Source: a virus
Lineage: Duplodnaviria; Heunggongvirae; Uroviricota; Caudoviricetes
Virus record (IMG/VR): IMGVR_UViG_2706794668_000012
Length of the DNA stretch: 4,350 nucleotides
Direction: 5' to 3' (one strand)
Part shown: one piece after another, positions 3,001 to 4,350 of the stretch
Numbering within the stretch: position 1 is the first letter of the stretch
How the letters are laid out: every line of letters starts with the position of its first letter
Position numbers: made by a program

Positions 3001-4350
3001 TGGACGAAAAAAGGTTCATTGTCAAACTTCCATGAGGCACGTCGTGTTGGCCTGAATGGCTTCTCTACATTAAACAAAGTGCCGGAAGGCGCGGAATATA
3101 AATACATCACCACCAGTGACCGTGGCGAACCAATCGCGCTGGCAACTTACGGAAATATTTTCAGCATTACCCGACAGGCGATTATTAACGATGACCTGAA
3201 TCAGTTAACAGTTATCCCACAGGCAATGGGGCGAGCAGCCGCCAGAACGGTGGGTAATCTGGTTCATCTGGTGCTGACAGGAAACACAAAGCTTTCTGAC
3301 GGTATACCGCTGTTCAGCAAAAAACACGGAAATGATATTGATAACGGAGTCAGCACTACAGGGCTTGGCATTGCACGCCGTGCAATGCGCACACAGAGGG
3401 ATGAAAACGGTGAGGTGCTGAATATTGTGCCAAAATTCCTTCTTGTTCCTGCGGCTCTGGAAGACAGAGCGTTGCAAATGGTTAACTCAACCACGCCTTT
3501 CGGTGCCGATACAAACAGTGGTTCATATAACCCGTACCACAAACAACTGGATATTATTGTCGATCCCCGCCTTGATGAAGTCAGTGATAAGCAATGGTAC
3601 ATGCTTTCAGCACAGGGAACGGACACAATTGAGGTGGCTTATCTTGACGGTAATGACGAGCCTTACCTTGAGCAGCAGGAGGGCTTTATTGTTGACGGTG
3701 TGGCCTGGAAGGTCCGCATTNNNNNNNNNNNNNNNNNNNNNNNNNNNNNNNNNNNNNNNNNNNNNNNNNNNNNNNNNNNNNNNNNNNNNNNNNNNNNNNN
3801 NNNNNNNNNNNNNNNNNNNNNNNNNNNNNNNNNNNNNNNNNNNNNNNNNNNNNNNNNNNNNNNNNNNNNNNNNNNNNNNNNNNNNNNNNNNNNNNNNNNN
3901 NNNNNNNNNNNNNNNNNNNNNNNNNNNNNNNNNNNNNNNNNNNNNNNNNNNNNNNNNNNNNNNNNNNNNNNNNNNNNNNNNNNNNNTTTTTGTTCGACAT
4001 CTTTTAGCGTGACAGATTCTTTACAAAAAATCTGAGCTTGTTTTCTTAACCAGCGCGATGGGGGCACAATGACAGAAGCCGAAATACTGGGATTAATCCG
4101 CCGCGTCGCCGGAATCAGCCAGCAGGTTGACGAACAGGCCATGCAACCGGACAGCGTGACCGCTGAAAATTATGCGCGTGTGGTGGATGAGGTAATGCGC
4201 CGTGACGGTATTGAGCTTAACGGCGTGGATATGCGCAACATACGAACCAGAGTTCTTGAGTTGCTGGCATACCGTCGCCGTTCTCAACAACGGAGGGAGA
4301 GCGCGAAAAATACTTACCAGTGGAGGAAGCCGGAGCACTTACGGCGGTAA

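Follow-up and report, generated by a model that had tools for sequence, protein, structure and literature searches.

The island and its two repeats

The window analysed here is a stretch of 4,350 nucleotides (nt) from the virus record IMGVR_UViG_2706794668_000012. It contains the C-terminus of a primase, an iteron origin, an open reading frame (ORF) of 81 amino acids (aa), an SSB gene, a small-protein gene, a gene encoding a ClpP-protease/capsid fusion, and an ORF of 93 aa. The window is part of a ~10-kb phage-inducible chromosomal island (PICI) of the EcCICFT073 family without rpp. Two copies of a bipartite motif, formed by box 1, a spacer and box 2, lie in it. They are the 3' tips of a direct repeat of ~230 nt, a longer and well-understood element. 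We consider it likely that both repeats are co-oriented lambda-type cos sites flanking the capsid operon, with the motif copies as their distal ends. The positions of their elements, their homology and their covariation carry this interpretation, and would predict cleavage, TerS binding and the use of two helpers. An earlier sequence-only reading of this DNA overlooked the DNA-packaging role of the repeat.

The pattern TTTTTGTTCGAC-N21-TTTACAAAAAA has exactly two matches in the window, at positions 1436-1479 and 3987-4030, both on the plus strand. None of 200 dinucleotide-preserving shuffles contained a match, even when 2 mismatches were allowed, and none is expected by chance. The spacer measures 21 nt in both copies, and the copies share only 4 of these 21 bases. 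Box 2 is identical at 11/11 positions, and the extended box 1 at 15/17. The two copies bracket the small-protein/protease/capsid block, as the sequence-only reading had noticed; the 64-aa ORF and the ClpP-protease/major-capsid fusion gene lie between them. Its distances are also confirmed. The ATG at 4069 begins 38 nt after the end of copy 2. The ATG at 1719, the start annotated in relatives, is 239 nt past the end of copy 1, where ~240 nt had been given.

Much of the second repeat falls in a run of N. The IMG/VR contig L091 differs from the window by 1 mismatch in the 3708 nt before this gap and is identical at 364/364 positions after it (99.97% identity). Its gap fill has 233 nt, compared with 266 N in the window, and serves here as a proxy, the masked bases themselves being unread. 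The fill opens with the capsid 3' end, followed by the terminator GGCGGCAGCAGCCGCC and T6. It continues with cosQ (GGGTCCTCCTGG), cosN (CACG/GGGCGGGTCGGC/GCGG) and an R3 element of the AB type (CGTCATCATCATCATG). Finally, an AT-rich stretch, an inverted R2 (GATGATGAT) and GGTTAA run directly into TTTTTGTTCGAC at window position 3987. A second full copy of the ~230-nt module (copy 1 at window 1262-1480) is thus contained in the fill. This proxy supports the suggestion of a repeat extending into the N run. Two full copies of the module are also present in the E. coli relatives MS6198 (L002), 2012C-4221 (L001) and an O157 strain (L084).

Copy 1 (window 1256-1485) and the proxy of copy 2 are 63% identical over ~235 nt. 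The identity is not uniform along the module. It is 78% in the terminator/cosQ/cosN part, 79% from +13 to +45 and 51% from R3 to R2; box 1 has 88%, the spacer 19% and box 2 100%.

The elements of copy 1 follow the order of a lambda cos site (Table 1). We set cos position +1 at window 1322. The hairpin at 1267-1288 sits where lambda and VT1-Sakai have a hairpin upstream of cosQ, and it is kept in relatives. The cosQ element is found ~30 nt upstream of cosN in both copies and is kept in all five cos classes described below. Window 1292-1338 aligns with the lambda cos junction, GGGTCCTTTCCGG...TTACG/GGGCGGCGACCT/CGCGG. Likewise, the context ACG/GGGCGG.../CGCGG is present at window 1318-1338 and in the proxy of copy 2, and both align with lambda and with cos1 of EcCICFT073. 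The mEp460_4F5 record begins 5 nt before the predicted +1, which is suggestive, not decisive.

The plan of a cosB region is recognizable at the level of pattern, as an IHF site, an R3/R2 inverted repeat and a covariation of R3 with TerS. A previous work proposed an R3-PICI at the position equal to window 1365-1380 (PMC9026076). The only exact match of the window to the IHF consensus WATCAANNNNTTR occurs at 1384-1396, with 0.26 expected across the window. It is placed between the R3- and R2-position elements, as lambda's I1. In copy 1, GTCGAA (1421-1426) and TTCGAC (1442-1447) form an inverted repeat. The AB-type module has a perfect one (9/9) in ATCATCATC and GATGATGAT, which are 42 nt apart, like R3 and R2 of lambda.

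Homologous segments occur in phages, and in every phage examined they lie between the Rz/lysis genes and terS. The genes that follow are the small terminase, terL, portal and the ClpP-protease/capsid fusion gene. The small terminase of VT1-Sakai, the one phage TerS of this comparison that was scanned, matches phrog_141 (6e-66). By BLAST against phage genomes, copy 1 is 91.5% identical to 1720a-02 over 153 nt and 90% identical to CP-1639; mEp460 and PhiR40_1 are among its weaker matches. For copy 2, the module of L002 was compared: VT1-Sakai and several Stx2a/2d-converting phages match it at 84% identity over ~200 nt, both boxes included. The cos modules reach 84-91% nt identity to phages, compared with ~51% (aa) and 65% (nt) between the island capsid and the capsid of the embedding prophage.

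Table 1. Features of the window (positions are those of the whole stretch; slashes mark the borders of the cosN core).
Feature	Position	Strand	Remark
Intrinsic terminator hairpin GCCGGAGCAATCCGGC + T6	1267..1288	+	After the SSB gene; left edge of cos module 1; read from sequence
cosQ-like element GGTACTCCTGG	1292..1302	+	Aligns with GGGTCCTTTCCGG of lambda and EcCICFT073 cos1, at equal distance to cosN
cosN-like core CACG/GGGCGGGCGGTT/CGCGG	1318..1338	+	Matches lambda TACG/GGGCGGCGACCT/CGCGG
R3-like TerS site (putative), C-type, GTCACCATCACCACCA	1365..1380	+	~+44 to +59; position as lambda R3
IHF consensus TATCAATAACTTA, I1-like (predicted)	1384..1396	-	Between R3- and R2-position elements
R2-position element AGTGTCGAAT	1418..1427	+	Left arm of inverted repeat with box 1
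Box 1, copy 1, GGTTGTTTTTTGTTCGAC	1430..1447	+	T tract and R1-like half-site, +109 to +126; conserved in all five cos classes
Spacer, copy 1	1448..1468	+	With perfect palindrome GGAACGTTCC; 10 nt longer than the C-type phage spacer
Box 2, copy 1, TTTACAAAAAA	1469..1479	+	Pattern match; also U tail of minus-strand terminator-like hairpin 1500-1481
Two GC-rich hairpins	1481..1530		Start of capsid-operon leader; right junction of cos module 1; the EcCICFT073 analogue has no cos in front
64-aa protein (phrog_4934)	1719..1913	+	First gene of the cassette; conserved in other genera, where it also precedes the capsid fusion gene
ClpP-like prohead protease/major capsid fusion gene	1910..3720	+	Runs into the N run; Pfam CLP_protease 3.7e-33, Phage_capsid_4 5.3e-44; RefSeq name in relatives
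N run	3721..3986	+	Inferred content: capsid 3' end, terminator, cosQ, cosN, AB-type R3, IHF-like site, inverted R2; proxies L091, L001, L002
Box 1, copy 2, TTTTTGTTCGAC	3987..3998	+	5' part within the N run; pattern match, L091
Spacer, copy 2	3999..4019	+	First bases ATCTTT complete the R1-like half-site CGACATCTTT; inverted repeat with R2 element AAAGATGATGA
Box 2, copy 2, TTTACAAAAAA	4020..4030	+	AB-type phages have it upstream of terS at equal spacing
93-aa protein (phrog_1561)	4069..4350	+	Conserved last gene of the island family; PHROGs family of unknown function

Classes of cos sites and the types of TerS

Viral contigs were scanned twice, with a search keyed on the motif and with a cosN-proximal pattern independent of it. 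The motif-keyed scan biases the spacing statistics; the second scan reduces this bias, but the two sets overlap. The cos-to-downstream regions sort into five classes. In class 1 (AB-type phages), R3 is CATCATCATCAT, box 1 stands at +117, the gap to box 2 is 24 nt, and terS (MDGELKNM...) follows after ~49 nt. This gap runs from TTTTTGTTC to TTTACA, that is, the N21 spacer plus GAC of box 1. Class 2 corresponds to copy 1. It comprises C-type islands (R3 = CACCATCACCACC), with box 1 at +115 and a gap of 24 nt, followed by hairpins and the capsid-operon leader. Class 3, to which copy 2 belongs, groups AB-type islands with box 1 at +117, the same gap of 24 nt and then the 93-aa gene. In class 4 (C-type phages), box 1 is at +113 to +115 and the gap is 14 nt (TTTACATAA). 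A Shine-Dalgarno site and terS (MDRELKNL...) come next. Finally, class 5 contains AB-type islands with box 1 at +117 and without box 2, where an EcCICFT073-type leader is joined right after TTCGACATCTTT.

Copy 1 has the R3 type of phages 1720a-02 and CP-1639, and copy 2 that of VT1-Sakai and the Stx2a phages. In phages, the type of R3 is paired with the type of the TerS N-terminus in 26/27 AB and 13/13 C unique sequences; the C-type R3 occurs with the TerS N-terminus MDRELKNLHLNISQ.... The two TerS types differ in their first ~60 residues, and the remainder is nearly identical. This covariation is the pattern expected if the TerS N-terminal domain reads the R elements. Because the R3 type tracks the TerS N-terminal type, the island would carry one cos site of each specificity. 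The full bipartite motif is found at equal spacing upstream of terS in 24 of the 26 unique AB-type phage sequences.

The last of the blocks common to the five classes, phage and island alike, is box 1 (GGTTGTTTTTTGTTC...), at a constant +112 to +117. The 3' part of box 1 and the R2-position element are the arms of an inverted repeat, and these arms covary between types. In PhiR40 the pair is ATGTCGAA-N14-TTCGACAT (8/8). The AB-type pair is AAAGATGATGA against the reverse complement of TCGACATCTTT (9/11), with TAAAAAGATG/CATCTTTATA as the computed repeat, and the C-type pair is AGTGTCGAAT against the reverse complement of GTTCATCACT (7/10). Such a repeat is as expected for the binding of a dimeric TerS winged helix. 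From its position, symmetry and covariation, we infer that box 1 is a T-rich spacer plus a putative R1-like TerS half-site, and that it forms the distal end of cosB. In class-5 islands, the module is retained up to and including the R1-like half-site and stops exactly there. We read this junction as a natural deletion boundary for a cos site that would still be functional. For lambda, MAFFT placed GCTTTTTGGCC as the counterpart of box 1, and by eye the downstream TGTTTTTGTCCG fits better; neither assignment is relied on here.

Tentatively, we regard box 2 as an accessory A-tract that came with the phage terS leader and may either assist DNA bending or simply have been retained. By eye, the boxes show no convincing match to sites for IHF, CRP, LexA or P2-Ogr-type activators (TGT-N12-ACA). 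A stronger proposal joins two claims: that the T-tract/R1-like half-site/N21/A-tract arrangement, common to phages and satellites, is a required and so far unrecognized distal sub-site of cosB, and that it goes together with bilingual packaging without Rpp. We regard this joint proposal as doubtful. To our knowledge, the T-tract/N21/A-tract bipartite arrangement has not been described for lambda.

The spacer of copy 1 shows a further feature. GGAACGTTCC at 1451-1460 is a perfect 10-bp palindrome, part of the 10-nt expansion relative to C-type phages, and it is kept in copy 1 of the islands. An operator specific to the island could be its role.

The two cos sites of an island mostly differ in their cores. 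The sequence that lies between CACG and CGCGG is different at the two sites in 19 of 22 distinct two-cos islands, and in the present one it is GGGCGGGCGGTT in copy 1 and GGGCGGGTCGGC in the proxy of copy 2. With site-specific cosN cores, a molecule cut at cos1 on one side and at cos2 on the other would have non-matching ends. Presumably, each cos site works with its own copies along the concatemer.

On this basis, the following mechanism can be proposed. After induction of the helper, the island would replicate into concatemers. The helper TerS-TerL terminase and IHF would bind cosB, nick cosN and package rightward. The C-type cos would match the TerS of phages like 1720a-02 and CP-1639, and the AB-type cos that of phages like VT1-Sakai and the Stx2a phages. 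Since the two sites carry different R elements, either helper lineage could package the island without an Rpp adaptor. Matching two helper lineages seems the most economical reason to keep both cos sites.

If both sites work with their own helper, this would be a second route for enteric PICIs to hijack packaging. EcCICFT073 re-targets TerS by Rpp; in contrast, this island would collect the cos sites of several helpers. It would also mean a wider helper range for satellites that are common in Shiga toxin (Stx)-producing E. coli, with a bearing on how often islands and their cargo move between strains. The cassette-less islands, the islands without box 2 and the phages with a 10-nt shorter spacer offer a natural deletion series for a minimal cos. 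More generally, a short promoter-like bipartite repeat beside an N run can be the visible tip of a longer known element.

Several observations weigh against this interpretation. In EcCICFT073, deletion of cos2 raised the lambda-mediated transfer of the island (PMC6092414, PMC6739421). As cosN cores differ in most two-cos islands, a second cos could interfere with packaging. The R1-like half-site of copy 1 is mutated with respect to the C-type consensus, with TTCGACGCC instead of TTCATCACYGG. Both downstream genes stand behind strong terminators, and a source for their transcription is still needed. Box 2 is conserved at every position and at exact spacing next to a spacer with so few shared bases, and simple carry-over offers no explanation for this. 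Moreover, class-5 islands lack box 2, and C-type phages have it nearer by 10 nt, or one helical turn; both facts make a packaging role for it doubtful.

Alternative explanations of the repeats

The sequence-only reading had suggested a shared promoter architecture with differential leader control. In this explanation, the motif would be an activator-dependent promoter in which TTTACA serves as the -35 element and an activator binds upstream at box 1. Both the capsid operon and the 93-aa gene would be transcribed from it, with further control through the long leader in the case of copy 1. TTTACA agrees with TTGACA at 5/6 positions, and each copy lies just past a strong intrinsic terminator, with genes in need of transcription after it. 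Conserved boxes around a variable spacer would also suit protein-binding sites at fixed spacing. However, no -10-like hexamer stands 16-18 nt downstream of TTTACA in any of three contexts, and the scan gave no plus-strand sigma-70 promoter at either copy. In lambdoid phages the element lies between cos and terS, where late transcripts come from upstream; in lambda, late transcription from pR' reads through this interval. C-type phages leave ~18 nt from TTTACA to the terS ATG, so there is no room for a promoter and a 5' untranslated region. Class-5 islands drive the equivalent capsid operon without box 2. A scan of genome contigs with the capsid fusion protein, which gave mostly prophages and distant islands, also showed single-cos islands in other genera. 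Those of Kluyvera, Yersinia, Buttiauxella and Moellerella share the small-ORF/capsid operon and its conserved proximal upstream region, with no cos or motif ahead of it. Their single cos comes after the capsid gene. In Kluyvera, Yersinia and Buttiauxella (translated by eye), this cos is followed by a short ORF with a Nu1-like helix-turn-helix (HTH), and the Kluyvera ORF matches the small-terminase family phrog_141 (1.6e-13). We think a promoter is very unlikely. The same low probability applies to box 2 and the next hairpin as a leftward (minus-strand) terminator or insulator, which would keep antisense transcripts, such as a leader small RNA, out of cos. On the minus strand of copy 1, the hairpin GGGCGC-T8-GCGCCT is followed by GTTTTTTGTA, which is box 2. 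A strong second terminator (1530-1487, z = -2.4) lies downstream of a conserved minus-strand promoter, and in AB-type phages the same T run is preceded by a weak hairpin (ACAGA-N6-TCTGT). Nevertheless, this phage hairpin is made of just 5 bp, two of them G-C, box 2 of copy 2 lacks an adjacent hairpin, and box 1 and the fixed spacing are left unexplained. An RNA element was rejected, given that there is no Rfam family at the motif and no common fold. In the window, Rfam (E <= 1) returned only four sub-threshold eukaryotic microRNA models, at the origin inverted repeats, and one long non-coding RNA model. For the folded motif, z was -1.5 (copy 1), +0.4 (copy 2) and +1.6 (phage copy); neither copy 2 nor the phage copy did better than its shuffles, and no structure is shared.

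A different explanation is that the repeats are mainly recombination substrates. They would be portable homology for the gain, loss or swap of a cassette among islands and helpers, and packaging by the second copy would be secondary or absent. Among the loci in hand, the interval from SSB to the 93-aa gene contains nothing (L122, 300 nt), the fusion cassette, or an EcCICFT073-type cassette with or without rpp. The backbone is the same in the cassette-less islands (L122; E. coli S19-651, which is L241; LZSFT34) and in the others, and the cassette is bounded by cos in all cases. In the cassette-less loci (L122 6665-7114, L241 6734-7968), SSB, with or without PerC, is followed by a single cos and the 93-aa gene. 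The single cos of L122 joins the terminator and cosN region of the copy-1 side to an AB-type cosB, as expected from a crossover between direct repeats. In addition, copy 1 of the window has TTCGAC, typical of copy 2, which hints at gene conversion. On the other hand, cassette-less forms are rare: the order SSB-PerC-cos-93aa occurs in 2 complete E. coli genomes of ~1276 carrying the region. The single-cos state could be ancestral rather than a deletion product. Both cos copies keep all sub-elements, and each is 84-91% identical to a different phage cos type, which argues for selection on packaging over neutral homology. The crossover of L122 is likely near cosN and is not at the 44-nt motif. 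We therefore retain one part of the idea of an exchangeable capsid module. In the relatives, the cassette is present or absent between cos repeats that seem to act as module boundaries, a role that is partly supported; the homology for exchange would be the whole cos module rather than the motif. As the main function of the repeats, recombination is possible but unlikely in our judgement.

Neighbouring features and comparison with known systems

Taken together, the window and its relatives show the layout of a Gram-negative PICI of the EcCICFT073 type (int, HTH, primase, iteron origin downstream of the primase gene). Annotated relatives carry int, an HTH gene, YlcI, an Icd-like gene, DUF4222, primase or RepA, the 81-aa ORF and SSB, sometimes with PerC next. 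The small ORF, the capsid fusion gene and the 93-aa ORF come after SSB. The C-terminus of the primase in the window has a Pox_D5 domain and is followed by an iteron-rich origin at 300-540, with direct and inverted GGTGAACAG(T) repeats. For the 64-aa protein, a ribbon-helix-helix fold is a guess. The capsid fusion gene has a 13-nt deletion (gcttgcaggctgg) near 2969 compared with intact E. coli relatives. The resulting frameshift splits it into an ORF at 1910-3055 and another from 3019 onward, and L091 has the same deletion. In the lineage of the window and L091, this gene is probably a pseudogene.

The 93-aa ORF is present in ~1300 of 5426 complete E. coli genomes, always beside cos. Pfam gives nothing for its product, and a sequence search of the PDB gives only a weak, unrelated match to QmcA. 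An adaptor similar to Rpp or TerS was considered for it and set aside, given these results and a PHROGs family of unknown function only. No RppA homologue was found by tblastn in L091 or L115.

The leader of the capsid operon contains a candidate antisense small RNA of ~75 nt (window 1487-1597, minus strand). Its minus-strand promoter would be TTGACT-17-CACAAT (1597 to 1569), and its terminator runs from 1530 to 1487, with U8 and a fold z of -2.4. It has no Rfam match. A second, diverged variant of the leader keeps the promoter hexamers (TTGACG-17-CAATAT or CAGTAT) and the terminator, and the RNA body differs. Further along the leader, ATTTAYTTACCASTTTTANYGATCAAT (window 1655-1700; L005 4740-4790; L008 4725-4770) is conserved across genera, with or without a preceding cos. 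It is probably the real regulatory region of the small-ORF/capsid operon.

The surroundings of the island vary among relatives. In L091 (reverse strand), a second, Kluyvera-like island lies in tandem downstream of the region equivalent to the window. Its primase C-terminus and its capsid fusion gene have aa identities of 97% and 62%, respectively, and it also has a small ORF, a single AB-type cos and a TerS-like ORF. In L115, L148 and L158, an AB-type phage cos and terS are found on the other side of the island. In L084 (9733-10863) and L085 (9732-10850), from O157 and O121 strains, the right end of the island abuts a terL without its N-terminus. Portal and a ClpP/capsid fusion gene come after the truncated terL. 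The island is inside a late gene of the helper prophage, the configuration called HE-PICI (helper-embedded PICI).

The island belongs to the same family as the HE-PICIs, with L084 and L085 as relatives inside the prophage terL gene. In the HE-PICI 11capE, a 258-bp segment at the position of cos, 90% identical, is common to the island and its helper (PMC10111431). Two co-oriented cos sites of different cosB type are not described in that work. The 'doubled motif' of HE-PICIs (TGTATTGC) is an attP arm site, unrelated to the bipartite motif.

The cos-type Staphylococcus aureus pathogenicity islands (SaPIs) also have a helper cos and a homologue of a capsid protein (SaPIbov5), and SaPIbov4 was reported with two putative cos sites. 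However, they are Gram-positive elements with unrelated sequences and an HNH-dependent terminase.

In the order and spacing of its sub-sites, the module agrees with lambda cos: the hairpin and cosQ at ~-30, the cosN core ACG/GGGCGG..., R3 at ~+45 to +60, then an IHF site and, at ~+100, an R2 in inverted orientation, with one more element preceding terS (Nu1 in lambda). Just 3' of lambda R1, TGTTTTTGTCCG resembles box 1. Nevertheless, the R sequences of the island are unrelated to those of lambda, and the sequence between the nick-flanking bases differs, with a length of 10 to 12 nt.

The Stx-type lambdoid phages are closer. Their cos-to-terS regions are 84-91% identical (nt) to the island copies, the AB type to copy 2 and the C type to copy 1, and they also encode a ClpP-protease/capsid fusion. 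The AB-type phages have box 1 and box 2 at equal spacing. The C-type phages differ in having box 2 ten nt closer to box 1 than in the island. In these phages terS comes after the module, where the island has the capsid-operon leader or the 93-aa gene.

EcCICFT073 is the reference for the island family. It carries two cos sites, both functional on plasmids, and cos1 is needed for transfer and is RppA-dependent (PMC6092414, PMC6739421). In CFT073, cos1 is located upstream of rppA, and the inverted cos2 precedes the homologue of the 93-aa gene. L189, an island similar to EcCICFT073, has three cos-like sites, at 2361, 3245 and 5684. One, of the AB type, follows SSB, another comes after the c1501 homologue, and the third, which is inverted, precedes the 93-aa gene. 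The island of the window shares with EcCICFT073 the order of the backbone (DUF4222, primase, an 81-85-aa ORF, SSB, a small ORF, one or more capsid genes and the 93-aa last gene). Each has two cos sites resembling that of lambda, in which cosQ and cosN are conserved and the cosB regions differ, and in both islands one cos lies immediately upstream of the 93-aa gene. In contrast, the cos sites of EcCICFT073 are inverted and flank rppA, whereas those of the window are direct repeats flanking the capsid cassette. The cos1 of EcCICFT073 has an Rpp-specific cosB; both cosB regions of the island are of helper-phage type, with no rpp. The capsid of EcCICFT073 is of the lambda-E type with a decoration gene, unlike the ClpP-protease fusion found here. 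Two-cos satellites are already known from EcCICFT073; the island described here varies a known layout rather than adding a new promoter.

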